This document shows positions 14,123 to 57,431 of a stretch of DNA of 64,000 nucleotides, piece after piece (within the stretch, counting starts at the first letter, position 1; each line of letters begins with the position of its first letter). The position numbers and the translations under genes are program-made. The notes under the pieces were generated by a model. It was not told the DNA's origin. It made no database searches and saw nothing but the letters and a program-made list of their open reading frames with translations. Source of the DNA: Candidatus Magasanikiibacteriota bacterium (GTDB lineage Bacteria > Patescibacteriota > Patescibacteriia > Magasanikbacterales > UBA922). The stretch spans positions 83,234-147,233 of the forward strand of contig JBAYVA010000002.1 in the NCBI GenBank assembly GCA_041674805.1, given 5' to 3'.

Positions 14123-15250
14123 TTATTTTTTAATAGGCATAACGATATACAAGTAATTGTCTTTTTCTTTTGGTCTAAAAATACAAGGAGCATCAGCACT
14201 ATTTACACCAAATTCAATGTTTTCACCTTCCATGTGTGCTAAACCATCCAACACATAGCTGTGGTTTAATAAAATGGAATTTTCTTCACCAATTACTTCA
14301 GCATCAACTTCAGAAGTATGTTCTCCAGCTTGAGTACTGGAAGAAGAAACTCCTACATTTTTTTTGCTTGGACTAAGCTCAAAAGAAACAGCATTGATAC
14401 CACCTGACGTAAACAAACTCGCTGCTTTGATTTTGTTGACCATAACACTTAGCGGAAAAGCAGCTGTTGTTTTAAAATTGTTTGGAATAATTTGTGTATA
14501 ATCTGGATAACGGCCTTCAATCAAACGACTAGTCATTTCAAAATTTCCATAACGAATAGCTATTTGATTATCACTTACCCAAACACGAACAATATCTTCA
14601 CCGCCATGACTTTTGGCAATTGTCAAAAGACGATTTATTTCATAAGCTACGCGTGCTGGTACAATACAGTGCACATTTTGAATTTCACCTTGTTTAATTT
14701 TTATTTTAGCTTCTGCCAAACGATAAGAATCTGTTGCTGCTAATACTAATCCATCATATTTTTCTGAAAAAAATGAAAAATAAATACCTGAAAATTCTGG
14801 TCTTACTTCGTTTTTGGAAACAGCTATAATAACTTTGCCAATAGCTTCTTTCAAATCATCAACTTGAACAACATAAGAATTTTTTTCTTCCACTTCTGGT
14901 AAAATTGGATAATCTTCATCTGTTGATCCTTTGATTTTAGTGCTAGAATTACCTGAAGTTATGATTAATTCATTGCCTTTTTGGTCTATTTCTACTTGTT
15001 CGCTTGTCAATAACTTAACATAATCTGCCAAAGTTTTTGCTGGAACTGTAAAATTTCCAGTAGTTTCTACTTTGGCTCTAATTTGTGTTTTTACTGCAAT
15101 TTCTAAGTTAGTACTGCTAATTTCAATACCTGAATCATTGGCTTTGATAAGTACGTTACTCAAAATTGGTAAGTTTGTATGTTTACTAGCTAAGGAACTC
15201 ACAAGACTCAAGGAATATTCTAAGTTTTCTTTTGTACATGTGAATTTCAT
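14123..15250 (-). CDS. dnaN: DNA polymerase III beta sliding clamp
   Basis: 375 aa. N-terminus MKFTCTKENL...LPILSNVLIKA is typical of DnaN, and the gene is immediately downstream of dnaA. Confidence 0.85.
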   Translation of the reverse strand: MKFTCTKENLEYSLSLVSSLASKHTNLPILSNVLIKANDSGIEISSTNLEIAVKTQIRAKVETTGNFTVPAKTLADYVKLLTSEQVEIDQKGNELIITSGNSSTKIKGSTDEDYPILPEVEEKNSYVVQVDDLKEAIGKVIIAVSKNEVRPEFSGIYFSFFSEKYDGLVLAATDSYRLAEAKIKIKQGEIQNVHCIVPARVAYEINRLLTIAKSHGGEDIVRVWVSDNQIAIRYGNFEMTSRLIEGRYPDYTQIIPNNFKTTAAFPLSVMVNKIKAASLFTSGGINAVSFELSPSKKNVGVSSSSTQAGEHTSEVDAEVIGEENSILLNHSYVLDGLAHMEGENIEFGVNSADAPCIFRPKEKDNYLYIVMPIKK

Positions 15251-15764
15251 ATGTTTGTTGTTTTATTAGTATATATATATTTATATAACTAGTAATATAT
15301 AATAAGGCCTGTGTGTAAAGTGCGAAAGTCGTTTTTTTGTTTTGGTTGACTTATTTTTTTGTGTGGACTTCTGCGCTTAAACTGTGTTTTTAAATGTGGT
15401 ATTTCTGGTGATAACTTTTTTTTAATTTTTTTCCTGTTGATGAACTGTTGATTTGTGGATAGATTATGAACAGTCTTTTTTTAGTTATCAACTTTTTTGT
15501 TATCGAGAATTTTTTTTGTGAATTGTTTGTTATTAACTTTTTTTAAATATTATTTTTAAAGGAATAATTTTTATTAGTTTTTGTTTGTCTTGTCAGAACT
15601 CTTAGTTTGGAGTTGATAGAATGAATCTAATAAAAATATAATTTTTTGTTTGCTAATAAAACTTCTCTGTTTTTTTGTTGAGAAATTTTTCAAAAATTAT
15701 AATGATTTACAATTTTTGAAAAATCCCTCATCTTTTTTTTAAAAAGATTTTTGGGATTATTTTT
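15251..15764. promoter_or_regulatory. dnaA-dnaN intergenic region, oriC part: DnaA-box-like sites plus an AT-rich unwinding element
   Basis: TGTGGATAG at 15454-15462 and TGTGGACTT near 15362. An extremely AT-rich tract runs 15530-15600. No ORFs. Confidence 0.5.
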
Positions 15765-17150
15765 TTAAACAGCGTTGGAATATAATCTTTGTTTTATCAT
15801 TTCCAAATCTTGTTTGAGCTTTAAGTCGTTGTCTATACTTTGTAATATTTTACTGTGTGCATGCATAGCTGTAGTATGATCTCTACCACCTAGTTCATCA
15901 CCTATATTTGGATAAGAAAGTTTCAACTCTTCTCTTAGCAAATACATGATAATTTGACGTGGAAAAGCTAATTTTTTTTCACGACTTTTGCCGAGTACAT
16001 CATCGATAGAGATATCAAAATAACCAGCTACGACATTTATTATTTCACGAGGAGTTAAAGAACGTTTCATACTTTGTTCTTCAAAACTAGATAATACTTG
16101 TTTAATAGTTTCTTCAGTTGCTTCAATATTTTTTAGTTCGTGATAAGCAATAATTTTGTTGAGAGCGCCTTCTAATTCACGAATATTATTTTTAACATTT
16201 GTCGCAATAAATTGGATAAGTTTTCCTTCAATTTTGAAATCTTTTTCCTGAGCTTTTCTTTGTAGAATAGCTAAACGAGTTTCTAAGTCAGGAGGAGAAA
16301 TATCAGCAATCATACCCCATTCAAATCTACTGCGTAAGCGATCTTCTAAAGCAGGTATGGCTTTTGGTGGTCTATCACTTGTTAAAACAACTTGTTTACC
16401 TTGTTGGTGTAATTCGTTGAAAGTGTGAAAAAATTCTTCTTGTGTTTGTTCTTTGCCACCAATAAATTGAATATCATCAATCAAAAGTAAATCAACATTT
16501 CTATATCTATCTTTGAATTCTTTGGCTCTACCTTCTTTTACAGAAGAAACAAATTCATTGGTAAATTTTTCAGAACTAACGTATAAAATTTTTGTTTGAG
16601 GATTGGCCTCAAGCATAGTATGGCCAATCGCTTGTATAAGATGAGTTTTTCCCAAACCTACTCCTCCATAAATGAATAAAGGGTTGTAAGAATCTCCAGG
16701 ACGACGAGCTACGGCTTGAGCTGCAGCATGAGCAAGTTCATTACCTTTACCTACGACAAAAGTATCAAAAGTATATTTTGGATTCAAACCAAATTGCTGA
16801 ACCAAAGTATTTTTTCTTTGGTTATTGTATAAAGGGTTTGTAATAGTAGAAATTTGTGGTAACTTCTCTGACATTTTACATTCAGATTCTTTGATATTTT
16901 TTATATTTTCTACTATATAATCTACTTTTTTGATAGGTTTGCCTGTCACTCTTTCTAAGATCTTGATTATTTGAGAGTGATGCTTCTTTTCTAACCAACT
17001 CTTTGTAAAGGAGTTAGGAACACAAATATTCACTAATCCTTCTTCATAATTTGCTATTCCTGTGTTTTTGAACCATGTCGTAAATTGAGCTTTGGATAAA
17101 CTTAGCTCAAATTCGGCCAAAACAGCTTGCCAGATTTCGTGAGTGGTCAT
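15765..17150 (-). CDS. dnaA: Chromosomal replication initiator protein DnaA
   Basis: 461 aa. Walker A GGVGLGKTHL, sensor and box VII motifs, and the C-terminal DNA-binding helix (LSYPNIGDELGGRDHTTAMHA). Confidence 0.9.
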   Translation of the reverse strand: MTTHEIWQAVLAEFELSLSKAQFTTWFKNTGIANYEEGLVNICVPNSFTKSWLEKKHHSQIIKILERVTGKPIKKVDYIVENIKNIKESECKMSEKLPQISTITNPLYNNQRKNTLVQQFGLNPKYTFDTFVVGKGNELAHAAAQAVARRPGDSYNPLFIYGGVGLGKTHLIQAIGHTMLEANPQTKILYVSSEKFTNEFVSSVKEGRAKEFKDRYRNVDLLLIDDIQFIGGKEQTQEEFFHTFNELHQQGKQVVLTSDRPPKAIPALEDRLRSRFEWGMIADISPPDLETRLAILQRKAQEKDFKIEGKLIQFIATNVKNNIRELEGALNKIIAYHELKNIEATEETIKQVLSSFEEQSMKRSLTPREIINVVAGYFDISIDDVLGKSREKKLAFPRQIIMYLLREELKLSYPNIGDELGGRDHTTAMHAHSKILQSIDNDLKLKQDLEMIKQRLYSNAV

Positions 17151-17733
17151 AGATAAAGTCTTTATTTTTATGTTTTTTCATTTTATCACAGTTTGCTAAT
17201 TTAAAAAATCCTCTAAATTAAGCTAAAAGTGCATAAAGTTGTGGACAACTTGTGGATTCTGTGGATAATTTGGCTAAAATACTTTATATTTTTTATTAAA
17301 AAATTATGAACAGTTTGGAGATTTTTACTTTTTTTATTTTAGAAAAATAGATTTTTTGTTAATAGCGTTTTTTTGCTAATTTTAGTAAAAAATGAATAAA
17401 AATAGTTGATTGCTTTATTATAATAACACATCCTTCACTCGTAGCAAAAACAAAGGTCAGAAATGTTTTTTTACCAATGTTTTTGTCTAAAGGTGGATAA
17501 TTACTACGAAATAATACAATTTATACCCTATTTTTGATTTTATTAGGATTTGTAGATTCATTAATTTTGATTAATGTGGTCAATTTATTAGATTTTTGTG
17601 TTTTTTGAAGTTGAAAATTTTTTTTATGTAAGTTAGTTTTTCTTATTATTGTCTAAGTTTTTATCAATACTTGACAAAACTTTAAATTTTTTGTATTATT
17701 TAGCTACATTATTTAGTTTTGAACTTATAAGTT
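17151..17733. promoter_or_regulatory. oriC / dnaA upstream region with clustered DnaA boxes
   Basis: TGTGGACAA at 17240-17248, TGTGGATTC at 17251-17259, a perfect TGTGGATAA at 17260-17268 and GGTGGATAA at 17492-17500. The region is flanked by divergent rpmH and dnaA. Confidence 0.7.
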
Positions 17734-17913
17734 ATGGCAACAAAAAGAACATATCAGCCAAAAAAACGTAAAAGAGCAAAGACCCATGGTTTTCTAGAAA
17801 GAATGAAAACAAAAGATGGTCGTAAAGTTCTTAAGGCACGTCGTGATAAAGGCAGAAAAAAACTTACAGTAAGTGAAGAAAGAACAGGTAAAAGAACAAG
17901 AAAAACACGTTAA
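17734..17913 (+). CDS. rpmH: Ribosomal protein L34, with a C-terminal extension. It is missing from the ORF track because it is under 60 aa.
   Basis: Translation is [59 protein letters not shown]. The L34 core TYQPKKRKR...HGF...G..VL.RR is conserved and rnpA follows directly. Confidence 0.85.
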
Positions 17914-17978
17914 TTTGTCTGTTTTTAATCTAATAACCATTACTACCTCGTTTTTACGAGGTTTTTGTGTTATAATAT

Positions 17979-18362
17979 TTGTATATGTTAGCCAAAGAAT
18001 TTAGATTAAGAGGTAAAAAAGAATGGGAAGTTTTGTTTGCAGAAGGTAACTTTGCTTCGGCAAATTTTTTGACGGTCAAATTTTGGAAGATAGAAGTAAA
18101 TAAATTTCCTCGTAGAAAGTTTCAAGTATCAGATCTTAAGATAGGCTTTAGTGTTGGTTTAAAAATAAGTAAAAGTGCTGTAAAACGTAATAGTGTTAAA
18201 AGAAAAATGAGTGAAGTTGTGAGATTGTTATTAAAAGACAATAAAATTAAATCAGGTTATTTGATTGGATTCTTGGCTAAAAATAATATTTTAGATGTTG
18301 ATTACTCACAAATAGAAGCAGATATTATTAATTGTCTGAAAAAATCTAAACTATTAATCTAA
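17979..18362 (+). CDS. rnpA: RNase P protein component
   Basis: 127 aa basic protein directly downstream of rpmH, with an RnpA-like fold (KEFRLR...FSVGLKISKSAVKRNSVKR). Confidence 0.75.
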   Translation: MYMLAKEFRLRGKKEWEVLFAEGNFASANFLTVKFWKIEVNKFPRRKFQVSDLKIGFSVGLKISKSAVKRNSVKRKMSEVVRLLLKDNKIKSGYLIGFLAKNNILDVDYSQIEADIINCLKKSKLLI

Positions 18363-18385
18363 AAATTTAGCTTAAAATAGATAAA

Positions 18386-18414
18386 AAATGAACTTACAAA
18401 GTTCATTTTTTTTG
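18386..18414 (+). terminator. Intrinsic terminator after rnpA
   Basis: ATGAAC-TTACAAA-GTTCAT followed by TTTTTTT. Confidence 0.65.
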
Positions 18415-18883
18415 TATTTGTTTGTTTCTTTTGAAAATATTCAAATTTTTTATAAATTTACGAAAAGTTTTGTTTTTTATTTTATTTTTTTATGAGAGAT
18501 AATTAATTTGTATTTGTTAATGTTACTTTTTGTCTTTAATTAGCCAAATATATTTATAGTTTTTTTGTTTTATTTTTTAGTAATTATAATTTTGTTATTT
18601 TTTGCTAAAAATTTGTCATAATTTGTTTTTTAAGAAAAAAATTTTGTAAAAAATTATATTATTTTTTATAGGAACTTAAAAATTTTGTTGTTAATTCAAA
18701 AAAATGGCTAAAATTAGCACAGTTTAAAAAGTAAAAATAATTTTATTTTTACATATTGTTTTAATTTGTTTTTTTTGTTACAGTTAGTTTAAAGTTAGAC
18801 ATATATATTTTGAAAAATATTTTACTAATTTTTAATAAAATATTGTCAAAATTTTACTTTTTATAATTCATAATTTTGGCTTT

Positions 18884-19141
18884 ATGAAGCACAAAATAAC
18901 ATATTTACCACGTATTCCAATTTTGTTTTTGATAAGTCTTTATCAAAAGACATTATCCCCTGATCATGGCTGGTTCAAGAAGTATCATCCTAATGGTTAT
19001 TGTCGTTTTTATCCTACTTGTAGTCAGTATGGTTATGAGGTGATAAAGAAAAAAGGTTTGATCAGAGGTATTCCTCAAACTGCTTGGCGTATTATGCGTT
19101 GCAACCCTTGGTCTAAGGGGGGTGTTGACTTGCCGAAGTAG
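18884..19141 (+). CDS. yidD: Membrane protein insertion efficiency factor YidD
   Basis: 85 aa containing the CRFYPTCSQYG...RCNPWSKGGVD hallmark. Confidence 0.85.
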   Translation: MKHKITYLPRIPILFLISLYQKTLSPDHGWFKKYHPNGYCRFYPTCSQYGYEVIKKKGLIRGIPQTAWRIMRCNPWSKGGVDLPK

Positions 19142-19183
19142 TTTTGTGTTATAATATAGTTATAATTTTTAATTTAAAATAAT

Positions 19184-19543
19184 ATGAATATGGAATCTGG
19201 AGCTAGAAGGAATAGTGATTTTAAATTTTCTAGAGAAGGTAGAAAAGATGATGAGGATCCTTTGGCTGAAATTTTACCTAAAGAAGATAAAACCACAGAT
19301 GTCTTTTTAGCAGGTATGAGCCCTGAGGAATCATCTTTTTTTAGAAATTCACAAATTAAGCAAGCTCATGAGGATGTCTATAAAGCCGCAGCTGTATCAG
19401 AAACAAACCCTAGTGATTCTTTTAACGAACAAGAAACAGAATGGTTTGCACAAGGTGAAAGGCAAGATTTTCAAGAAAAAGATATACCAAGAAAAGAGAA
19501 TCTTGTAAAAAGATTGTTTAAGAGAATGTTTGGTAGTAAATAA
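19184..19543 (+). CDS. Hypothetical acidic protein (119 aa)
   Basis: ORF with a terminator directly downstream (19553-19579). No recognisable motif. Confidence 0.35.
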   Translation: MNMESGARRNSDFKFSREGRKDDEDPLAEILPKEDKTTDVFLAGMSPEESSFFRNSQIKQAHEDVYKAAAVSETNPSDSFNEQETEWFAQGERQDFQEKDIPRKENLVKRLFKRMFGSK

Positions 19544-19592
19544 AAATAATTTAGCAGCCTTTATCTGAGGCTGCTTTTGATAAAATATAATT

Positions 19593-19814
19593 ATGCTTCT
19601 AAACATCAAAGTAATACCAAAATCATCTTTAAACAAGGTTATAAGGCTTTCTGAGAATGAATTGAAGGTGAAGTTGACTTCCCCACCTGTTGATGGCGAA
19701 GCAAATAAAAAATTGATAGAAATACTTAGTAAAGAATTTAATGTTGCTAAATCAAAGATTAGAATTGTGAAAGGTGAGACTGGAAAAAATAAGGTAGTTG
19801 ATATTGAATTTTAA
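19593..19814 (+). CDS. DUF167 / YggU-family (UPF0235) small protein
   Basis: 73 aa with the typical LKVKLTSPPVDGEANKKLIEILSKEFNVAKSKIRIVKGETGKNKVV pattern. Confidence 0.7.
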   Translation: MLLNIKVIPKSSLNKVIRLSENELKVKLTSPPVDGEANKKLIEILSKEFNVAKSKIRIVKGETGKNKVVDIEF

Positions 19815-28857: not shown

Positions 28858-28889
28858 AAATAAGGAAAAGGTAATTCCTTATTTTTTTT
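28858..28889. terminator. Bidirectional terminator between convergent holA and the GGDEF gene
   Basis: TAAGGAA-AAGGTAA-TTCCTTA followed by TTTTTTTT. Confidence 0.6.
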
Positions 28890-29883
28890 CTACTAATTTT
28901 TCATAACACTCTAGAGCATGTCCTACTATTTCTTTTTCTGATTTATCTTTTAGTACTTCTTGCATAGGACGCATGACCTGTCTTATGTAAGAAAGTTTTT
29001 CTTTTTCTCCTTCTTCAAAATAAGTTTCTGTTTCTTCTGATGAAATTATTCTATCAGCTGAAGATGTATCATCTTTATCTTCTAAAAGATTCTTTGTTCT
29101 GATTAGTTTAGAAATTTCTCCTGCTTTGTCAGCCTCTTCACGCTTGTTTTTGAACAAATCTTTTTCACTTACCATTTCTGGAGCAACTACAGTATAGCCA
29201 ACACTTATAGTTTGTTTGTTTCCATCAGGTCTTTCACTGTTTTGTTCAATATTGGTTACCATTCTGGCTAAAACATTTTTTACATCAGTAACTTTGTCTT
29301 GTGGCATTGTCAAAAACATACCATATTCATCTCCACTGAATCTGATCCCTACGTCTCCTTTGGCTAGTGAAAGAGTAGCTTCCAAATTTTTGGCAACTGT
29401 TTTAAGTAACTCGTCTCCTCTTTCGTGGGTGAATGAATCATTTATTTTTTTAAAATTATCCAAATCAAAAGTCACAAAGACAATAACATTGTTACTACCT
29501 TGTATTTCAGTCATTTTTCTTTTAAATTCCTGTTGGGCACCATATCGGCTAAATAACTCTGGAGTCAAATTTTCTTGACCTTCTTTTATGGTACTTTCTG
29601 TTAGTTTTTTTAATTCAGTTAAAGACGCTGTTAGAGCTTTGTCTTGAAATTCTGGAGAAATTTCTACAGTTTCACCCTTTTTAGATTTTCTTGTTTTTTC
29701 ACCAGCAATCAATCTTTTGTAGTTTTTGGCAAACCAGTTGCGTAATTCTTCTTGATTTTGTTTAGTAAGATCTTTTTCATCAATAGTGTTGAAGTAATTA
29801 TCTAAAGCTTCATTTATACCTTTATTTGTTATAGTTTCGTCACCAAACAATATCTCTCTAGATTGGGGTGTTGTTTCACTCAT
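28879..29883 (-). CDS. GGDEF-domain protein (diguanylate-cyclase fold) with a degenerate SGDEY active-site motif and an uncharacterised N-terminal domain
   Basis: The cyclase core reads IVFVTFDLDNFKKINDSFTHERGDELLKTVA...GDVGIRFSGDEYGMFL, where the canonical sequence is RxGGDEF. Confidence 0.7.
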   Translation of the reverse strand: MSETTPQSREILFGDETITNKGINEALDNYFNTIDEKDLTKQNQEELRNWFAKNYKRLIAGEKTRKSKKGETVEISPEFQDKALTASLTELKKLTESTIKEGQENLTPELFSRYGAQQEFKRKMTEIQGSNNVIVFVTFDLDNFKKINDSFTHERGDELLKTVAKNLEATLSLAKGDVGIRFSGDEYGMFLTMPQDKVTDVKNVLARMVTNIEQNSERPDGNKQTISVGYTVVAPEMVSEKDLFKNKREEADKAGEISKLIRTKNLLEDKDDTSSADRIISSEETETYFEEGEKEKLSYIRQVMRPMQEVLKDKSEKEIVGHALECYEKLVEKK

Positions 29884-48065: not shown

Positions 48066-49232
48066 TTAGGCAAAAGAAAGTCCTGGTTCCAACATCATTT
48101 CTTCATTTTCTATTTTTGTTTTTTGAAAAATATTTTGGTTGGCATAAAATTTTTCATTGGTTGCCATTAGTCTAATGTTTTTACCATTTTCTACTAAATA
48201 CTGAATACCGTTACCACAAATTTTGTTGTCAGCTACATCTTTTTGACCAATGATAACCCATTTTAGTTGTGGCATATCAGATATAAGATGTGAGCATGGT
48301 GTATATTTGCCATTACGATAGGTGCATGGTTCCATTGTACAATAAAGCATGTATTCGTGTTCTTCCCAATCAGGAGTATTATTTTTTAGCATAGACAAAG
48401 CATCTTGTTCAGCATGAACATGTCCACGTCTGTATCCCCAAGCAGAAATTTCGAAAGTTTCAGAATCTACCAATGTGGCTCCTACGCCATAGCCGTGTCT
48501 AGATTTATTTGAAACATCTTCAGCTAATCGTTCAGTGATAGTATAAAATCTACGGTTTACGTCAGCCCAAAAAACATCTTTGAAACGACTAGACATACTA
48601 CAAATTACTTTATTATTTTCTATATAAGTATCAAAAAGGTAGGAATAATCATATTTTTCAAAAATATCATTTTTTTGTCTATAATTACTTTTATCATTTA
48701 CACAATAAATGCCTGTAATTTTTGTATCTGAGCTTATTGACTCAACTGCTTTTACCATATTTACAATAGTTCCTCCAGTTGAAGCCATACAGTCTACAAT
48801 AGCAATTTTTTTATTTTTTAGAGCTTTACTCATATACATTGTACGTTCGTAATAGCCTGTTTGTTGTGAAAAATCAACACATTCTATATCATAATGAAAT
48901 GTTTTGGCAATAATCAAAGGAAGTCGTAATTGTGCAGCGATCAAAGTAGCAATGCCTATACCATCAGATTCTATAGACAGTATAACTTCGGTATCTTTTG
49001 GTATCATTTCTGCTAAATATTTTGCCAAAGTGTTATAAATTCCTTGATTAGCTAGAGTAAAACCTTTGAAAGGATATATAAAATATTGATAATTAGAAAC
49101 AGTACCACCTTTACTATCAGTTGTACGTATTTGTGCTTCACGAAATAAATTCATAGCATCACCTACATCTTTTTTTATGGCTATTATTTCTTGATATGTT
49201 TGTTGAAGTTCTTTTTCAAGAAGATTTAACAT
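48066..49232 (-). CDS. Two-domain fusion: N-terminal type-I phosphoribosyltransferase domain plus C-terminal RibD-type (riboflavin-pathway-like) cytidine-deaminase-fold domain
   Basis: PRPP-binding loop KIAIVDCMASTGGTIV. Deaminase zinc motifs HVHAEQDAL and TMEPCTYRNGKYTPC. The long spacer between the two Cys matches the RibD pattern EPC-x8/9-PC, not the PCxxC of dCMP deaminase or TadA. Confidence 0.6.
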   Translation of the reverse strand: MLNLLEKELQQTYQEIIAIKKDVGDAMNLFREAQIRTTDSKGGTVSNYQYFIYPFKGFTLANQGIYNTLAKYLAEMIPKDTEVILSIESDGIGIATLIAAQLRLPLIIAKTFHYDIECVDFSQQTGYYERTMYMSKALKNKKIAIVDCMASTGGTIVNMVKAVESISSDTKITGIYCVNDKSNYRQKNDIFEKYDYSYLFDTYIENNKVICSMSSRFKDVFWADVNRRFYTITERLAEDVSNKSRHGYGVGATLVDSETFEISAWGYRRGHVHAEQDALSMLKNNTPDWEEHEYMLYCTMEPCTYRNGKYTPCSHLISDMPQLKWVIIGQKDVADNKICGNGIQYLVENGKNIRLMATNEKFYANQNIFQKTKIENEEMMLEPGLSFA

Positions 49233-49438: not shown

Positions 49439-50089
49439 TTATTCTATATTTATTTTATCTCCCAAAAACTTTGGTTGAATATCAAATAATAAATCAAGCA
49501 TCATTTTGAGTCGTGCGAAGCTTTCCCTGATTTGTATTTTTGTATTAGCATAAGATTTTACATTACGAGCATTGTATCCTATAGCGTCTATACCTTTTTT
49601 GTTGGCAATATATATGGCACGTTCATTGTGGAATTTTTGTGAGATGATAGTAATATTCTCTTGTCCAAATATTTCTTTGCTTCGGACGACTGAGTCTAGA
49701 GTTCGAAAGCCAGCATAATCGAGGAAGATGCTCGAAGTCGGCACGCCAGCTTCTATCAAATCATTTTGAATAGTTGTTGGTTCATTGTATTTCTTTGTGC
49801 TGTTGTCTCCACTTACTAAAATAAAATCAATTTTGTTAGCTTCAAAAAGTTTTTTGGCAGCTGTAATTCTATAAGCATAATAAGCATTTATTCTGCCATC
49901 TTTCAAATATTTACTTGTGCCGAGTAATAATCCGACTTTGTTGTGAGGAATATTTTCTATTGAATCATAAATTTTTTCGTCAGTGTTTTTTTCTATTATT
50001 TTGTTGGTGATAATAATAGATGAAGAAAGAAAAATAAAACTCAAGAAAAAAATTAGTAAAAGTTTTAAGAATATTTTTTTCATAATCAA
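49439..50089 (-). CDS. DUF218 (SanA/YdcF/ElyC-family) envelope protein
   Basis: N-terminal TM, then DFILVSGDNSTKKYNEPTTIQNDL...ITIISQKFHNERAIYIANK, the DUF218 core. Confidence 0.65.
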   Translation of the reverse strand: MIMKKIFLKLLLIFFLSFIFLSSSIIITNKIIEKNTDEKIYDSIENIPHNKVGLLLGTSKYLKDGRINAYYAYRITAAKKLFEANKIDFILVSGDNSTKKYNEPTTIQNDLIEAGVPTSSIFLDYAGFRTLDSVVRSKEIFGQENITIISQKFHNERAIYIANKKGIDAIGYNARNVKSYANTKIQIRESFARLKMMLDLLFDIQPKFLGDKINIE

Positions 50090-50643
50090 AACTTCTCCGT
50101 AATATGCAAATGTTTTCTAATTTTATTTTTCCAAGTTTCAAAACTTTCTACCAAAGTTATCAATCCCAACATCACCATGATGAATACTACTGGCTGAGTA
50201 GAATATTGAGGCAGATTAAAAATGCTAAAATTTTGTAAAAATAATTTTAATAATTGCCAGATAATCATTGAGACTAGAGTTGCTAACAAAAATTTAATTA
50301 CGAAAAAATCAAAGTTGAGAAAATTCTGTATGAACTTGCCATCCATTTTTTTTAACCAATTAATATATTTTTGGGAGACAGGATGTTTTTTTGTGTATAG
50401 TAAAAATAATTTGATTATGAAAATAATGATTCCAGAAATAAGAATAGTCAACATAATATCGAAGACTACATGCCACCAAGTAGGGTATTCTTTTCTGATA
50501 GTATTAACCAAAGGTGTGTCCATTAGTTTTAAGCCCGCTGGCAAGGTGAGGGTGGCATAGAGGAAGACAATAGCCGTGACTCTCTGTATCCAGAGCAATA
50601 TTTTGCTGTGTGTTTTTTGGTTTGGATAGTATGTTTTGTTCAT
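50086..50643 (-). CDS. Hypothetical 5-TM membrane protein, translationally coupled to the DUF218 gene by an ATGA overlap
   Basis: ORF with hydrophobic helices and a 4-nt overlap with the downstream gene. Confidence 0.4.
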   Translation of the reverse strand: MNKTYYPNQKTHSKILLWIQRVTAIVFLYATLTLPAGLKLMDTPLVNTIRKEYPTWWHVVFDIMLTILISGIIIFIIKLFLLYTKKHPVSQKYINWLKKMDGKFIQNFLNFDFFVIKFLLATLVSMIIWQLLKLFLQNFSIFNLPQYSTQPVVFIMVMLGLITLVESFETWKNKIRKHLHITEKF

Positions 50644-50866
50644 AGTTTATAGACTTTACAAAGGTTCAATGTTATGTTATTTTAACATATGCGGAAGATA
50701 TTGACAAAAGTAGCAAAATGTGCTACACTACTCCGTTTATTACACATATATAAAAAGGCTTTATTTAGCCGATTAATTCATAATTTACAAATGGTTGTGA
50801 TTTCCATAAACCATTATAATGTGTAGTCATTTTAATTTATACATATTAAGTCTAATATATTCGTCT

Positions 50867-53788
50867 ATGAAAAAGAACTTTTTCGCTAAACTAGGCCATT
50901 TTTTCCTGGTTTCAGCTGTTTTATTCAATGGTTTTGGTGTAGCCTTTGTGAAGGCTGATGTTGTAGAAGTTTTGGGTATGTCTCCAAATACAGCAACTTT
51001 GTCTGAGGGTGACATTAACCCTATTTCTTTAGTAACAATTTCTAATTCATCTACTAGTACTATAAATCTAACATTTACTATGTCAGGTGAAGCTGTTAGA
51101 AGTATAGATGGTAGTGGTGATTATGAATTGTTTGTTGGGGAAGGTTCTCCATTTGTAGTTGTTGATACAAACTTAATAAGTGTGCCTGCAAATGATTCTG
51201 TCATCTTTCCTATAAATATTATAAATGACACAGTATCAGAAAATGCAGAATCTTTTGGTTTGACATTTGAAACAGCTAGTTATGATGATGAAAATAGAAC
51301 ACCTGTAGAAGGTTTTAGTTCTCGTGGTGCTATAAATTTTACTATCAATGATAATGATATTACACCTCCTACTTTTGATACTATTGTCCCTAGTCCATTT
51401 TCAAGAAATGAAAGTGATAATTTTGGTGGTATTGCTACTTTTATAAATAATGCTAGTACAACTTTAGATTTTCATTTTGAAATTAGTGGAACAGCTTCTA
51501 CATCTGATTATATAATTGAAACAACTAGTCGTAGTATAAATGAAAATGGAGATGTTATGGCGGTGCCTAATAGTGTGGATTTAGAAAATGGTATAATTAG
51601 TGGGGTTACAGGAAATGAAAAAAGAAGATTTAATTTTAAACCAGTAGAGGACACAGAAGTAGAAATTGATGAAACAGTTATTATTACATTGAAATATGCT
51701 ACTGATATTGAACAAAGAGTTTATGATTTTGCAGATATTTCTTACACTACTATTATTAAAGATAATGATACTGCATCCACTACTACCACAGCTAACGTCA
51801 CATTTTCTTTTTCAACTTCTACTATTAATGAAAATTCTGGTAATGTAAATGTTGCTAATGTTATTAATAATGAAAATCAAGATGTATCTGTGAAATTTAC
51901 ATTTTCTGGCACAGCAGTATATGGCACAGACTATACTTTGAGATCAGGAACTGGTACTTCTATTTTTGGTAATGGTACAGAAGCAGTACTTTTGATAGGT
52001 ATTAATAGTAGTAGTAGTTTTCCTTTGACTCTGAATACAGTTGATAGTGATAAAACTGTTGAAATTACTCTTACACAAGTAAATTTTGCGGATAATTCAA
52101 CAACAACATCTTTCACTGCAGGAAATGTTACAACACATACACTTACTATCAAAAATGTTCCTACATCAGGTGAAAATAATATTCCAACAATAAAAACACC
52201 GATAGCCACACAATATATAGATCTTTATGTTACTTCTACATTAACTATTAATAATGAAATATTAAAGAATTTATTTTTTGATTTAGATACTAATGATAGA
52301 GTTGGTATTAGTTTGACTAATAATACAGATGCTACTGTTGTAACAACAACATCAGACATAGAATTTTCTAGTTTAGTATTAACAGGTTTAAAAGTTGGAA
52401 CAAGTACTATTGAACTTACTGGTGATGATCATCGTGGTGGTATTGTTACCTCAACTTTCGATGTAATCGTTACTGATTCTACTCCTGTTGAGGGAAATAA
52501 TGCTCCAACATCAACTGTAATAGATGATAAAACATTGGAGGTTGGTCAGACTTTTGATATTATTCCTAGTGTTATTTTTGAAGATGTAGAAGATAGTGAT
52601 GATAAGTTAACTTATGGTGTAGAAATTAGTGCTGGTTCTGTTGTTTCTGTAACAACAACAAATTTTACAAATTCTTGGGCATATACTTTTACTGCTGAAA
52701 GTGTAGGTACTTCTACAATTACTCTTAGTGCAACTGATTTGGGTGGTCTTAGTACAAGTACATCATTTAAGGTAACTGTCACAGAAGATGTAACACCTAT
52801 ATTAATAAAAGAAATAGTTAATCAAACTTTAAAAGTAGGTGAAAGTGTAGTTTTGAACTTAAATGATTATTTTTCAGATCCAAACGAAGATGTCTTGTCT
52901 TTTTTAACAAGTATTAACGTTCCAAATTTAATTACTACAACACTTAATACTGAAACAAATAAATTAACAATTACTGGTGTAGCTATAGGTACAACTCTTA
53001 TGAGTGTTACTGCCTCTGATAGTCAACATAGTGTTTATGATATATTTAATGTCACAGTAAAAGAAAATAATGAAGGTAATACTGATAACAATACCGGTTC
53101 AAGTAACGGCGGTGGTAGTTTATTACCAAACACAGCTCCTCAAGCTTCTATGGTTGTTGGTCAAGAAGTAACTATCGAAGTAAACAAAGAAATTACTTTT
53201 GATGCTAGTAGTAGTGTAGATAAAGAAGGAAACATTAGATTTTATTTCTGGAACTTTGGTGACGGAAGTGATGAAGTATATTACACTGTCCCAACAGTCA
53301 AATATACTTATACTAAAATAGGTAATTACACTTTGAATATCAAAGTAAAAGATGCTTACGGTGCTGAGAGTAGTGCGCAAGTAAAGGTAAAAGTTGTAGC
53401 TGGCAAAGCTTCTACAAATACGGGAACTCCAAATACTAATACTGAAAGTGGAACTAAAACTGAAACTGAAACTACAACTTCTACTTCAACAACTGATACC
53501 CCAACTCCTGTAGAAGAAACTGGAAGTACTGGTAGTACAAATAATAATACTAACAATAACACTTCTGCTAATAATACTGAAGAAGAAGCAATAACAACTG
53601 AGGAAGAAAATACTTCTATAGAAGAAGAGACTACTTCTGAAAATACTGAAGAAGAAATTACTGAAGAAGTACCTGCTGAAACAACAGAAGAATTACCAAC
53701 TTGGATCAAGATCATCTTTGGCAGTGGTGCTCTAGCTGCTATTGCTGGCGCTGGACTTGCTATCAATAGAGTGAGAAAAAATGTGTAA
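50867..53788 (+). CDS. Giant surface protein A (about 973 aa from the MKKNFF start): signal peptide, Ig/cadherin-like beta-sandwich repeats, PKD domain, Thr/Glu-rich acidic stalk, and a C-terminal ELPTW plus TM plus RVRKN anchor
   Basis: Signal peptide MKKNFFAKLGHFFLVSAVLFNGFGVAFVKA. PKD segment ITFDASSSVDKEGNIRFYFWNFGDGSDEVYYTVPTVKYTYTKIGNYTLNIKVKDAYGAES. C-terminus EELPTWIKIIFGSGALAAIAGAGLAINRVRKNV. The track ORF starts 16 codons earlier at a non-conserved ATG. Confidence 0.7.
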   Translation: MKKNFFAKLGHFFLVSAVLFNGFGVAFVKADVVEVLGMSPNTATLSEGDINPISLVTISNSSTSTINLTFTMSGEAVRSIDGSGDYELFVGEGSPFVVVDTNLISVPANDSVIFPINIINDTVSENAESFGLTFETASYDDENRTPVEGFSSRGAINFTINDNDITPPTFDTIVPSPFSRNESDNFGGIATFINNASTTLDFHFEISGTASTSDYIIETTSRSINENGDVMAVPNSVDLENGIISGVTGNEKRRFNFKPVEDTEVEIDETVIITLKYATDIEQRVYDFADISYTTIIKDNDTASTTTTANVTFSFSTSTINENSGNVNVANVINNENQDVSVKFTFSGTAVYGTDYTLRSGTGTSIFGNGTEAVLLIGINSSSSFPLTLNTVDSDKTVEITLTQVNFADNSTTTSFTAGNVTTHTLTIKNVPTSGENNIPTIKTPIATQYIDLYVTSTLTINNEILKNLFFDLDTNDRVGISLTNNTDATVVTTTSDIEFSSLVLTGLKVGTSTIELTGDDHRGGIVTSTFDVIVTDSTPVEGNNAPTSTVIDDKTLEVGQTFDIIPSVIFEDVEDSDDKLTYGVEISAGSVVSVTTTNFTNSWAYTFTAESVGTSTITLSATDLGGLSTSTSFKVTVTEDVTPILIKEIVNQTLKVGESVVLNLNDYFSDPNEDVLSFLTSINVPNLITTTLNTETNKLTITGVAIGTTLMSVTASDSQHSVYDIFNVTVKENNEGNTDNNTGSSNGGGSLLPNTAPQASMVVGQEVTIEVNKEITFDASSSVDKEGNIRFYFWNFGDGSDEVYYTVPTVKYTYTKIGNYTLNIKVKDAYGAESSAQVKVKVVAGKASTNTGTPNTNTESGTKTETETTTSTSTTDTPTPVEETGSTGSTNNNTNNNTSANNTEEEAITTEEENTSIEEETTSENTEEEITEEVPAETTEELPTWIKIIFGSGALAAIAGAGLAINRVRKNV

Positions 53789-54158
53789 GATTGTTTGATA
53801 ATATAAAAAATAAAGAAGCTATTCATATATATTGAGTAGCTTCTTTTTTTATGAAGTTTTGATTGTTCACACATAGACTTTACAAGATATAAAGATTATG
53901 TTAATTTAATATATGTAGGATGTTGACAAAAATAGTATGGTATGTTGTTAATTTCTCTCATATTTAGATACATTCAAAGGCTTTATTTGGCCAATTAGTA
54001 ATTCAAAATGGTCGTGACCATTCACATAAACCATTGTAATATATAGTCAGTTTACTCATACTTAAAAAGTATGATAAATTTATCTATTAATTCATACTAA
54101 TTGAGTATGATATATTTAACTTATTAATTCAAAATTACCAAGTTTAATATATTTACTT

Positions 54159-57100
54159 ATGAAAAATAATTTTTTTGCTAAACTGGGAAACTTTTTTCTG
54201 GTTTCGGCTGTATTGTTCAATGGTTTTGGGGTAGGTTTGGTAAGTGCAGAATATGCAGAAGTTGTCTCTCCCACATTCTCTTTACTTGTTGATAATGTAA
54301 AAGAAGGAAATTTAGGAGAAACAACTACTTATAATGTTGGTGTAAAATATAATGGTCCAGTTTTGGTCTCTGATTATACTGTGGAAGTAATATTTTATAG
54401 TGTTTTAAATGATACTTTTGCTGAATATGGTGTTGATTATGAGGTACCTAATTCTGTGCCTAATTTGGAAGATTCTTCGTATTTTCTTACTTTTACGCCA
54501 GCAACACAAAATGATGAATTGTTTGTTCCTGTAACTGTTATGGGTAACGATACTATTAATAGTTTTAATGTTTTATTCAAATACATTATTTTTACTATAA
54601 AAGGTATTAATATCGACCAACCTGACCAGCTGTTTGGTTTGAGTATTGAAGATGATGATGTTCCTACTATTATTGAACCAATATTTACTCCCGCTACTTC
54701 TGTTGTCTATGAAGGTGTTGCTACAGGAGCTAATGTTACTAAGTTGGTAAACAATAATAATACTGATTTAATTTATACTATTGAACTTACTGGTGATGCT
54801 TTACTCGAACAAGAATTTGGATTGTCTGTTATTGATGAACAAAATATCTCTACACCAATCATGAGTAATTTTTTCAATCTTTCTGTACCAAGAAATTCTA
54901 GTTCTACTTTTTCTGTTCGTACAAATGGTATTTATGATAATTCGTCTTTTGATAATGTTGCAAAACAGACAATTTGGACTGTAACAAATGCGTTTGATGA
55001 GAGTATCTTTATTGATTATGATTTATCTTTAAGTAATATCAACTTTACTTTGGATATAAAAGATGAGGAAAATGATGTAGGTTTTATAAATCCAGCTTCA
55101 TCTGTTGCAGAAGGAATTTCATTGAATGACTCTAATTCATCACTTGTATACAACAATGGTACTGACAATGATGTGTCTTTGACATTTGAACTTTCGGGTA
55201 CGGCATCTTCTTTAACGGATTATACTGTAAGAACAAATGAATTGAGTTCAGGTTCTACTTGGGTAGTACCAAAAAATTCTATTAAATCTTTTCCTGTAGA
55301 TATCTTGAATGTAACTGGTGAAAAAAATTTAGTGTTTACAATTACAAAAATAGATTTATTAAATGACAATGGTACCATTAAAAATGGAAATATTACACCT
55401 ATTTTACCGAATGCACAGACACACACTTTGACAATTCTGGATAATGTTGTACCGCCTGTAAATCATGCACCTGTTGCAATTATGCAACCAATACTTTTGG
55501 GTAATGTTAATGTTGGTTCAAACTCAACCCCTGTTTCATTTTCAACCACTTTTTCAGATCCTGATTCAGATGTACTTACATATAGTGTAGAACTTTCAAA
55601 TCCTGTAATTGCAACATCTCAAATAACAGCAGGTGAGTTGGTACTTACAGGAACAAGTGTCGGTACAACAACAGTAACAATGATGGCTACAGATCCTGAT
55701 GGCTTGAGTGCTAGTACCACGTTTAGTTTGACTGTCGTAGAAAATAATAATGGTGGTGGAAATAATTCTCCAACAGTAAATATTCCAATAGCCACACAAT
55801 ATATTGATCTCTATACTACTTCCACATTAACTATTAATAATGCAATATTGCAGAATTTATTTTCTGATGCTGATGTTAATGACATAGTTGGTATTAGTTT
55901 GACTAATAATACAGATGCTACTGTTGTGACAACAACACCAGGCATAGAATTTTCTAGTTTAATGTTGACAGGTTTGAAAGTCGGTGCAAGTGTTATTGAA
56001 CTTACGGGAGATGATACACATGGTGGTATTGTTACCTCTACTTTTGCGGTAATCGTTAGTGACTCTACTCCTATAGAAGGAAATAATGCTCCTACATTAT
56101 CAACTACAACAGTATTTGTAGATAACGAAATTTCTTTGCAAGAAACATTTGGATCAAATCTTCATCTTTATTTCGAAGATGTTGATGCGGGTGATACATT
56201 AACTTTTTCAGCTACTACAACTGATGCTTCTATAGTGACAAGTGGAATTGACGCATTGGGTCAAATAACACTGACACCACATAATTATGGTACAGTTCAA
56301 GTAATTGTTACTGCCACAGATAATCAAGGTGCTAGTGTCTCTGATGCATTTTCTTTGAAAGTAAATACTCCACCAGAATTAACAGTAAATACTTTAGGAA
56401 ATAAACAAATTGATTTGAAAGTATCATCTAGTTTGTTAATAGATAGTAATACAATTCGTGGTGTTTTTACAGATAGAGATGGAGAAATACTTACTATTTC
56501 TGTAAGTGATAATAGTGATAATACTGTTGTAACAACTACTCTTGGAGAAGATGATTCTCTCACTTTACTTGGTTTAAAAGTGGGAACAAGTACGATTGAA
56601 ATCACTGCTGACGATGGTTATGAAATTACCTCTACTACATTTCTTGTTACGGTTGTAAATTCTACATCTGAAGAAACAGGGAATAATGGTGGCAACTCTG
56701 GCAGTTCAAGTGGATCTAGTGGCGGTGGTGGTTCTGCTCTTCTTTCTAATACAGCTCCTCAAGCTGCTATAACTAATGGTCAAGAAGTAACTGTGGAAGT
56801 AAACAAAGAAATTACTTTTGATGCTAGTCAAAGTACTGACAAAGAAAATAATATTAGATTTTACTTCTGGAACTTTGGTGATGATAGTGATGAAGTATAT
56901 TACACGGTACCAACAGTCAAACATACTTATACTAAAATAAGTAATTACACTTTGATAAGCAAAGTACGTGATGCTTACGGTGCTGAGAGTATTGCTGAAG
57001 TAAAAGTAAAAGTTGTAGCTGCTAAAGGTTCTACAAATACGGGAACTACAAATAATACTTCAAATACTAATACAGAAAGTGAAACTAAAAATGAAACTAC

Positions 57101-57431
57101 AATTCCAAAAACTGATACAACTACATCTGTAAAAGAAACTGGAAGTACTGGTACTACTACAAATACTAATAACAATAATTCTTCTAACAATACTGAAGAA
57201 GAAACAGTTATTGAAGAAGAAATTATAGAAGAAAGTACAATTGAGGAAGAAGATACTTCTTCTGAAGAAGAGTTTATTTTTGAAAATATCAAAGAAGAAA
57301 GTATTAAAGAAACACCAGTTGGAGAAGTAGAAGAACTACCAACTTGGATAAAAATCATCTTTGGTAGTGGTGCTTTAGCTGCTGTAGCTGGCGCTGGTCT
57401 TGCTATTAATAAAGTGAGAAAGAATATATAA
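54159..57431 (+). CDS. Giant surface protein B (1090 aa), tandem paralog of protein A with the same signal peptide, repeat modules, PKD domain, acidic stalk and ELPTW-TM-basic C-terminus
   Basis: MKNNFFAKLGNFFLVSAVLFNGFGVGLVSA. A repeated module is nearly identical to one in protein A (NIPIATQYIDLYTTSTLTINNAILQNLF...GISLTNNTDATVVTTT...LTGLKVG..IELTGDD). C-terminus EELPTWIKIIFGSGALAAVAGAGLAINKVRKNI. Confidence 0.7.
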   Translation: MKNNFFAKLGNFFLVSAVLFNGFGVGLVSAEYAEVVSPTFSLLVDNVKEGNLGETTTYNVGVKYNGPVLVSDYTVEVIFYSVLNDTFAEYGVDYEVPNSVPNLEDSSYFLTFTPATQNDELFVPVTVMGNDTINSFNVLFKYIIFTIKGINIDQPDQLFGLSIEDDDVPTIIEPIFTPATSVVYEGVATGANVTKLVNNNNTDLIYTIELTGDALLEQEFGLSVIDEQNISTPIMSNFFNLSVPRNSSSTFSVRTNGIYDNSSFDNVAKQTIWTVTNAFDESIFIDYDLSLSNINFTLDIKDEENDVGFINPASSVAEGISLNDSNSSLVYNNGTDNDVSLTFELSGTASSLTDYTVRTNELSSGSTWVVPKNSIKSFPVDILNVTGEKNLVFTITKIDLLNDNGTIKNGNITPILPNAQTHTLTILDNVVPPVNHAPVAIMQPILLGNVNVGSNSTPVSFSTTFSDPDSDVLTYSVELSNPVIATSQITAGELVLTGTSVGTTTVTMMATDPDGLSASTTFSLTVVENNNGGGNNSPTVNIPIATQYIDLYTTSTLTINNAILQNLFSDADVNDIVGISLTNNTDATVVTTTPGIEFSSLMLTGLKVGASVIELTGDDTHGGIVTSTFAVIVSDSTPIEGNNAPTLSTTTVFVDNEISLQETFGSNLHLYFEDVDAGDTLTFSATTTDASIVTSGIDALGQITLTPHNYGTVQVIVTATDNQGASVSDAFSLKVNTPPELTVNTLGNKQIDLKVSSSLLIDSNTIRGVFTDRDGEILTISVSDNSDNTVVTTTLGEDDSLTLLGLKVGTSTIEITADDGYEITSTTFLVTVVNSTSEETGNNGGNSGSSSGSSGGGGSALLSNTAPQAAITNGQEVTVEVNKEITFDASQSTDKENNIRFYFWNFGDDSDEVYYTVPTVKHTYTKISNYTLISKVRDAYGAESIAEVKVKVVAAKGSTNTGTTNNTSNTNTESETKNETTIPKTDTTTSVKETGSTGTTTNTNNNNSSNNTEEETVIEEEIIEESTIEEEDTSSEEEFIFENIKEESIKETPVGEVEELPTWIKIIFGSGALAAVAGAGLAINKVRKNI

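Follow-up and report, generated by a model that had tools for sequence, protein, structure and literature searches.

The window, which is the whole 64-kb stretch of DNA analysed here (64,000 nucleotides of contig JBAYVA010000002.1), derives from a tiny groundwater bacterium assigned to Candidatus (Ca.) Magasanikbacteria and carries two adjacent genes, A and B, for giant surface proteins that share a C-terminal tail. In this tail a short motif (ELPTW) is followed by a hydrophobic helix and then by basic residues. Immediately upstream of gene A, in divergent orientation, lies a gene for a 185-residue membrane protein with four predicted helices, which we call the partner. The features of the locus, in window positions, are as follows.

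50086..50643, minus strand: partner, 185-residue four-helix membrane protein, predicted N-in/C-in (open reading frame (ORF), hydropathy, positive-inside rule)
50644..50866, no strand: intergenic stretch separating the divergent partner gene and gene A; promoter-like sites occur on either strand
50867..53788, plus strand: gene A, 973-residue type I surface protein (ORF list, Pfam, BLASTP, public gene calls)
50867..50956, plus strand: signal peptide of A, MKKNFFAKLGHFFLVSAVLFNGFGVAFVKA (hydropathy; conserved across the family)
52169..52511, plus strand: immunoglobulin (Ig)/cadherin-like module of A, conserved and common to B (NIPTIKTPIATQYIDLY...VIVTDSTP)
53129..53392, plus strand: PKD domain of A, residues 755-842 (Pfam PKD_4, E = 4.8e-16; ColH PKD domains in PDB)
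53411..53692, plus strand: Thr/Glu/Asn-rich low-complexity stalk of A (composition)
53693..53788, plus strand: tail of A, LPTWIKIIFGSGALAAIAGAGLAINRVRKNV, including the stop codon
53812..53846, plus strand: terminator-like hairpin 3' of gene A
53873..53915, plus strand: second copy of the element upstream of gene A (79% identity to 50649-50691)
54159..57431, plus strand: gene B, 1090-residue paralogous type I surface protein (ORF list, Pfam, BLASTP, public gene calls)
55755..56096, plus strand: Ig/cadherin-like module, copy in B
56748..57011, plus strand: PKD domain of B, residues 864-951 (Pfam PKD_4, E = 6.2e-13)
57030..57335, plus strand: Thr/Glu/Asn-rich stalk of B (composition)
57336..57431, plus strand: tail of B, LPTWIKIIFGSGALAAVAGAGLAINKVRKNI, including the stop codon
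57451..57482, plus strand: terminator-like hairpin 3' of gene B

An earlier, sequence-only reading of this DNA had described A and B as adjacent paralogues of 973 and 1090 residues, each with a PKD domain, a Thr/Glu-rich stalk and a near-identical C-terminus. The ORFs are real and have these lengths. The start coordinate given in that reading, 50645, opens the upstream intergenic region, and no gene begins there. For gene A, an alternative in-frame ATG at 50819 adds 16 residues (989 in total); we took 50867 as the start because the MKKNFF start is found in public gene calls and in more distant homologues. Aligned by BLASTP, A and B are 53% identical across their C-terminal 444 residues (E = 1e-110), with a weaker N-terminal match, about 27% over the rest. 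The two signal peptides are nearly identical, and the common module is 85% identical in DNA (52169-52468 in A, 55755-56054 in B). These data indicate that A and B are tandem paralogues. The duplication took in the promoter region, as the upstream element of A is copied before B: 50649-50691 matches 53873-53915, and 50832-50971 matches 54124-54263. Hydropathy picks out exactly two hydrophobic segments in A and in B: one is the signal peptide and the other the C-terminal helix. With a predicted signal peptide, one C-terminal helix and a basic end (NRVRKNV in A, NKVRKNI in B), both proteins have the makeup of a type I membrane protein. Public annotation of the family's genes reads only "PKD domain-containing protein", "putative Ca2+-binding protein" or "hypothetical protein".

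The PKD domains score 59 bits in A and 49 bits in B against a cut-off of 27 bits (PF18911 / PF00801), and their sequence matches in PDB are the PKD domains of ColH. Besides PKD, Pfam gives weak signals for Calx-beta, He_PIG and Big_9 in the two proteins. The stalks were confirmed by counting: Thr makes up 33% of the stalk in A and 25% in B, Glu 24% and 25%, and Asn 14%. An AlphaFold model of A residues 437-851 contains four all-beta modules, with a predicted local distance difference test (pLDDT) score of 65 overall and 75-88 in the middle modules. The best Foldseek matches of this model in PDB (E = 1e-10 to 1e-13) include cadherins, protocadherins, SraP, an RTX-adhesin extender and the S-layer proteins SbsB and EA1. 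The PKD matches, together with the cadherin, adhesin and S-layer matches, support the adhesin- or S-layer-like architecture that had been proposed, and the ectodomain is modelled as a chain of cadherin/Ig-like beta-sandwiches plus PKD, as in adhesins and S-layer proteins.

The common C-terminal end of A and B is LPTWIKIIFGSGALAA[IV]AGAGLAIN[RK]VRKN[VI], and the C-termini quoted earlier (EELPTWIKIIFGSGALAA[I/V]AGAGLAIN[R/K]VRKN[V/I]) are exact. Among 21 family members, mean pairwise identity is 0.79 in the tail, 0.64 in the PKD domain, 0.46 in the signal peptide, 0.35 in the stalk and 0.31 in the preceding module. The tail is the best-conserved segment of the surface-protein family. Across 20 distinct tails there is no change in P, W, I, F-G-S, A, G-A-G, N or the second R. 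One of the 20 has S in place of the G that follows F-G-S, and the other variable helix positions swap only I, L and V; 12 of 22 helix positions are invariant. The LPTW motif is softer than the helix and basic end, being MPTW in some orthologues and APEW in P0039, the most distant member. Spacing is also kept: the P of PTW lies 30 codons from the stop in each of the 22 metagenome loci and in most proteins of the family, whereas P0034 and P0037 have 31.

Two simple causes of this conservation were considered and rejected. Over the 31 tail codons, A and B differ at eight synonymous and three non-synonymous positions, and distant tails differ at 14-15 synonymous codons with the protein sequence kept. 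The synonymous differences rule out recent gene conversion as the cause of the A/B tail identity, and because tails 8-15 synonymous codons apart keep their protein sequence, they point to purifying selection. A one-face dimer interface of the GxxxG type is ruled out by the spread of conserved positions all round the helix (conservation moment of 0.14 against a shuffle mean of 1.0). Conservation on all sides is unlike that of a lipid-facing anchor or of a single dimer interface.

We then consider the range of the tail. A 40-position profile built from seven tails, searched against 1.84 billion representative proteins, returned 18 proteins whose C-termini match (E <= 2.7e-8); the only hits below these were three weak ones to internal repeats. 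All 18 carry the Ig-like module, PKD domain, low-complexity stalk and tail, while their N-terminal modules vary widely. Scanning Joint Genome Institute (JGI) metagenomes with PTWI[KR]I[IL]F and [VI]AGAG[IL]A[IV]N gave 22 loci, all from the same family, and a stricter scan of 185,579 species genomes (GTDB) gave only two orthologous loci. No other LPXTG-, PEP- or PGF-like motif followed by a helix was found at ORF ends in the six frames of the window. These data indicate that the tail is a property of a single protein family, represented in each genome by one gene or by two neighbours, and not of a varied substrate set. The family is confined to lineages of the Magasanikbacteria type.

In the six-frame translation of the window, PTW occurs five times and is followed by a membrane-helix-like stretch in three cases: tail A, tail B and the 185-residue partner. 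In the partner, E-Y-P-T-W stands just before helix 2, which runs from outside to inside, an arrangement that repeats the one of E-[LM]-P-T-W and the tail helix. Invariant partner residues cluster in the outer loops and outer helix ends (LTLP, TPLV, EYPTW, Asp62 and P.Y..QPV), and a further invariant cluster, Arg21 and Glu166-Ser167, lies on the inner face. By the predicted topology, the conserved outer parts of the partner would stand at the level of the tail LPTW. The partner has no Cys and no invariant outer Ser or His; His57 is Ala in the partner at locus L038, and Asp111 is Glu or Leu in distant partners. The partner family contains no conserved catalytic set of a sortase, exosortase, rhomboid, or aspartyl or metallo intramembrane protease. 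No relatives of the partner were found above threshold in Pfam, NCBIfam or PDB, and its AlphaFold model (pLDDT 76, from 13 sequences) returned only generic helix bundles in fold searches. Matches to TIGR04370 in 4 of 13 members were sub-threshold and inconsistent; we treated them as compositional and rejected a relationship to Wzy-type polymerases. Pfam and NCBIfam have no model for either the tail or the partner.

The partner gene adjoins the tail gene at every assessable locus, with no counter-example where the contig reaches far enough. This linkage holds in at least 10 distinct lineages with differing wider neighbourhoods. Among the metagenome loci, the partner is present in every contig that extends far enough upstream (11 loci), and the remaining contigs end too soon. 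A 58%-identical homologue occupies the same position beside P0009, in a Magasanikbacteria genome with an entirely different wider neighbourhood: SpoIID, Wzx-like, GT2, Wzy_C and NUDIX genes there, DUF218/SanA and a phosphoribosyltransferase-deaminase gene beside the window's pair. Three further partner homologues each have a PKD gene beside them, and the tail is present in the two whose surface-gene 3' end is on the contig; at the third, L015, this end is off the contig and the tail region is cut off. The two most divergent tail proteins are also accompanied by a partner homologue, upstream and divergent for P0034 (163 bits against the family hidden Markov model (HMM)) and downstream on the same strand for P0039 (149 bits). 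At L038 the partner lies downstream on the same strand instead of upstream and divergent. Because the linkage survives rearrangement, we infer that the tail gene and the partner gene form a functional unit. Partner homologues were searched by word index only, and since this search missed partners of 40-45% identity that were later found by gene context, the true range of the partner family is probably wider than the one we found.

In GWD2-type and CG10-type Magasanikbacteria (L004-L007, L013 and L014), the pair lies beside a polysaccharide cluster of Polysacc_synt/Wzx-like, GT2, Wzy_C, NUDIX and NTP-transferase genes, with Peptidase_C39_2 two to three genes downstream. Wzy_C proteins include O-oligosaccharyltransferases, and glycosylation of stalk Thr residues is a possibility at these loci. 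Peptidase_C39_2 was rejected as a processing enzyme for the tail: it lies two to three genes away in GWD2-type loci only and is not conserved with the pair.

Two stretches of the A ectodomain DNA, 50957-52169 and 52511-53126, have no match in the closest relatives, where the flanks are 93-95% identical. The same relatives keep the signal peptide, the common module and the cassette of PKD domain, stalk and tail. In P0004 an A-like N-terminal part is joined to a B-like C-terminal half, which makes it a chimera. The mismatch between close relatives and the P0004 chimera show that outer modules are exchanged while the base stays fixed, and the ectodomain is a hot spot of module swapping. Such a pattern of exchange is expected for a surface protein exposed to hosts or phages. 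In addition, two JGI groundwater metagenome contigs, L036 and L028, have identical partner stretches around EYPTW, and both partners are about 75% identical to the window's. Their surface genes differ in ectodomain and tail (NLPTWIKILF...NRVRKNV against GLPTWIRIFF...NRARKAL), which suggests that the whole surface gene was replaced allelically beside a fixed partner.

The sequence-only reading had likened the tail to LPXTG, PEP-CTERM and PGF-CTERM sorting signals. The layout of motif, helix and basic end is real and strongly conserved, and the motif does lie outside the named classes, as had been noted; the step from this layout to a sorting signal holds up only in part. No NCBIfam sorting-domain model reached its cut-off for A, B or the isolated tail in searches with E up to 10, and no LPXTG-anchor model was among the matches of the two proteins and the isolated tail. 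The best NCBIfam match, GVDTG_CTERM, was rejected as the class of the tail, with 16 bits against a 29-bit cut-off and the helix alone aligned. Where LPXTG and its variants NPQTN, LAXTG and LPNTA are defined by their motif, the tail reads E-L-P-T-W-I-K, with W at the fourth and I at the fifth position. For PEP-CTERM/exosortase and PGF-CTERM/archaeosortase there is no match to motif or model, and each locus holds one or two tail genes. For GlyGly-CTERM/rhombosortase, the tail has L-P-T-W before its helix, no rhomboid match was obtained, and the partner lacks an invariant Ser/His pair. Sorting enzymes were sought in about 84 kb of the contig (the 64-kb window and 10 kb on each side) and in related neighbourhoods. 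Neither the sortase domain PF04203 nor any exosortase/archaeosortase or rhomboid Pfam domain was found there. We found no literature specific to sortases or surface-protein anchoring in Magasanikbacteria or the Candidate Phyla Radiation (CPR).

The tail may well be a retained anchor that docks into the co-encoded four-helix partner, and not a classical sortase-type signal; we regard this as an even call. The proposal builds on the restriction of the tail to one family, the stronger conservation of helix and basic end than of the motif, the constraint on all faces of the helix, the lack of a catalytic signature, the strict linkage and the PTW cap common to both proteins. A and B would be exported by Sec as type I membrane proteins of the Ca. 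Magasanikbacteria cell. Their chain of Calx-beta/cadherin/Ig-like modules and PKD would be held off the membrane by the Thr/Glu-rich stalk of about 95 residues, which probably spans the wall. The tail would stay uncut: its helix would remain in the membrane as an anchor, and its short basic end would lie in the cytoplasm. With its many small residues and its constraint on every face, the tail helix seems suited to burial among other helices, and it would pack against the 185-residue partner and possibly also against further tail helices. In this arrangement the two caps, [LM]-P-T-W on the tail and E-Y-P-T-W on partner helix 2, would be neighbours at the outer membrane surface, and the conserved Lys/Arg at W+2 of the tail may form a salt bridge with the partner's invariant Asp62. 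Anchor and partner would together make a fixed base whose outer modules are swapped between strains, with the surface gene duplicated here.

Several points weigh against docking. The partner model is of only moderate confidence (pLDDT 76, 13 sequences), the tails are too invariant for covariation with the partner, and the check for sortases covers only the 84 kb or so of the genome given above. Substrates of intramembrane proteases, too, typically have helices rich in Gly, Ser and Ala. Finally, strict linkage of tail and partner fits a dedicated processing enzyme equally well.

Exosortase and rhombosortase systems were first recognised by the co-occurrence of a tail with an adjacent polytopic membrane protein. 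By analogy, the tail could be a cleaved sorting signal and the four-helix partner a new, dedicated processing enzyme, an exosortase or rhombosortase analogue of unrelated sequence and fold. Such a partner would recognise the tail in the membrane, cut at or near LPTW, and either release the protein or transfer it to wall or lipid. We think this unlikely. The tail has the tripartite layout of motif, helix and basic end seen in the PEP-CTERM/exosortase, PGF-CTERM/archaeosortase and GlyGly-CTERM/rhombosortase systems, where a polytopic membrane protein co-occurs and is often adjacent; here the adjacency is perfect, even after rearrangement. The tail helix is rich in small, helix-destabilising residues, the invariant Glu52, Tyr53, Thr55, Asp62, Tyr147 and Gln150 of the partner lie on the outer side near the level of LPTW, and the Thr/Glu stalk is reminiscent of the wall-spanning segments found ahead of LPXTG signals. 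However, the partner has four helices as opposed to 6-8 or more, and it lacks the Cys/Arg/His or Ser/His active-site residues of those enzymes. It has no invariant catalytic set of any kind, with no Cys, no outer Ser/His pair (His57 is replaced by Ala) and no second invariant Asp within the membrane (Asp111 gives way to Glu or Leu), and it shows no sequence or fold similarity to exosortase-type or any other enzymes. A discarded propeptide is also unlikely to be the best-conserved part of a protein, down to its cytoplasmic NR.R[KR] end, and the supposed motif varies (LPTW, MPTW, APEW) and is less conserved than the helix. If processing did occur, the [LM]PTW-helix-NRxR[KR] tail and its orphan four-helix protein would constitute a previously unknown, lineage-specific sorting system of CPR bacteria, an outcome that we likewise consider improbable.

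A plainer explanation is that the tail is an ordinary C-terminal anchor with no specific partner, and that the four-helix gene is linked for some other reason, such as co-regulation from the shared divergent promoter, signal relay, or glycosylation or export of the Thr-rich stalk. The topology is the standard type I one (signal peptide, single C-terminal helix, basic residues inside), and a hydrophobic stretch followed by Lys-rich residues, unrelated in sequence to the tail, also closes another large surface protein of the window (3954..7697). A glycan-related role for the partner would be in keeping with the polysaccharide cluster (Wzx-like, GT2, Wzy_C) beside the pair in some relatives and with the weak, sub-threshold matches of 4 of 13 partners to an oligosaccharide repeat-unit polymerase model. 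However, no such cluster lies near the window's pair, and the polymerase matches are inconsistent as well as below cut-off. A lipid-exposed anchor should keep hydrophobicity only, whereas here 12 of 22 helix positions are invariant on all faces and the tail is more conserved than the folded PKD domain. The E-x-P-T-W cap common to tail and partner would also be left unexplained. According to the sequence-only reading, a tail confined to A and B, with no candidate processing enzyme, would more likely be a plain anchor; the tail is indeed confined to one family, yet a dedicated partner candidate adjoins it. Overall, we find a partnerless anchor doubtful.

The proposal of the sequence-only reading, in which some other part of the genome encodes a classical sortase, exosortase/archaeosortase or rhombosortase that takes the tail as a divergent substrate signal, is very improbable: the layout is tripartite and the cell makes peptidoglycan, with a class A penicillin-binding protein (PBP), an FtsW/RodA-family protein and an M23 peptidase encoded nearby, but there is no LPXTG, PEP, PGF or GlyGly motif and no NCBIfam model at cut-off, the window holds no other LPXTG-like or PEP/PGF-like tail, the searched part of the contig and the related neighbourhoods hold no such enzyme, and the tail belongs to a single family, not a substrate set, with LPTW less conserved than the helix.

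The docking proposal can be compared with several known systems. LPXTG adhesins anchored by sortase A resemble A and B in having a signal peptide, tandem Ig/cadherin-like modules, a low-complexity stalk and a motif-helix-basic end, and the ligand-binding region of one of them, SraP, is among the Foldseek matches of the A ectodomain. They differ in that the motif here is [LMA]P[TE]W, with no LPXTG model match and no sortase gene in the roughly 84 kb searched, and in that the helix is near-invariant, while the tail is restricted to a single family and has as its companion a four-helix protein without relation to sortases. We describe A and B as putative C-terminally anchored surface adhesins with a dedicated membrane partner, which match none of the LPXTG, PEP-CTERM, PGF-CTERM and GlyGly-CTERM classes and would work like the wall-spanning adhesins of Gram-positive bacteria.

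In eukaryotes, four-helix proteins hold single-pass Ig-domain proteins, as the tetraspanin CD81 does with CD19 and uroplakins Ia/Ib do with II/IIIa. CD81-CD19 and the uroplakins resemble the present pair as combinations of a four-helix protein with a single-pass type I Ig-like protein, and the likeness is one of functional analogy only. Likewise by analogy only, charge pairing of the DAP12-receptor type is echoed by a possible basic-acidic pair inside the membrane. Closer in lineage, it is well recognised that CPR genomes encode large membrane proteins with PKD domains (PMC8080830). Vampirococcus lugosii encodes giant membrane-located, multi-domain surface proteins with PKD and adhesion-type domains, for which host contact was proposed (PMC8080830). 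These resemble A and B as large PKD/adhesion-domain membrane proteins in a reduced CPR genome, and differ in that no conserved C-terminal tail or dedicated four-helix partner is described there (PMC8080830).

The assignment of the window to a CPR bacterium of the Ca. Magasanikbacteria, which agrees with the CPR cell supposed by the sequence-only reading, comes from about 90% DNA identity to contigs of Ca. Magasanikbacteria RIFOXYD12_FULL_33_17 and of a "Patescibacteria group bacterium". Housekeeping genes in the window include dnaA, dnaN, a class A PBP and an M23/LysM peptidase. The origin region (14123..19814) contains dnaN, dnaA and a cluster of small rnpA- and yidD-like ORFs, and the cumulative GC skew has its minimum near 10-16 kb of the window, consistent with an origin there. 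Nine tRNA genes are present. At 28879..29883 (minus strand), a protein with a GGDEF diguanylate-cyclase domain is encoded in this reduced CPR genome. The gene at 48066..49232 (minus strand) encodes a 388-residue fusion of a phosphoribosyltransferase with a cytidine/deoxycytidylate-deaminase-like domain that also matches an AID/APOBEC-like deaminase model, and the fusion gene has the same position in related genomes. A possible surface nuclease, secreted and 1247 residues long, is encoded at 3954..7697 (minus strand); it combines five lamin-tail domains with two PKD domains and a region of OB-fold/ExeM-NucH-like type. Its C-terminus, ...GGFTAILFGLFLKSNGEN...KKLIKKFISK, is hydrophobic and then Lys-rich, with no sequence relation to the LPTW tail. 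Because this protein also ends in this way, C-terminal membrane anchoring may be a general habit of the organism.

CPR bacteria are thought to live attached to other cells, and how their envelope holds large surface proteins is largely unknown. The locus reduces this question to a testable unit of two genes, with a conserved base of anchor helix and four-helix protein and exchangeable outer modules. The narrow known range of the family (18 clusters among 1.84 billion representatives) makes its general impact moderate. Should the partner prove to be an enzyme, protein sorting would gain a new class of machinery. A complex of the two proteins, if it forms, would be a simple bacterial counterpart of the eukaryotic assemblies of four-helix proteins with single-pass receptors, and would provide a handle for finding the host-contact proteins of Magasanikbacteria.

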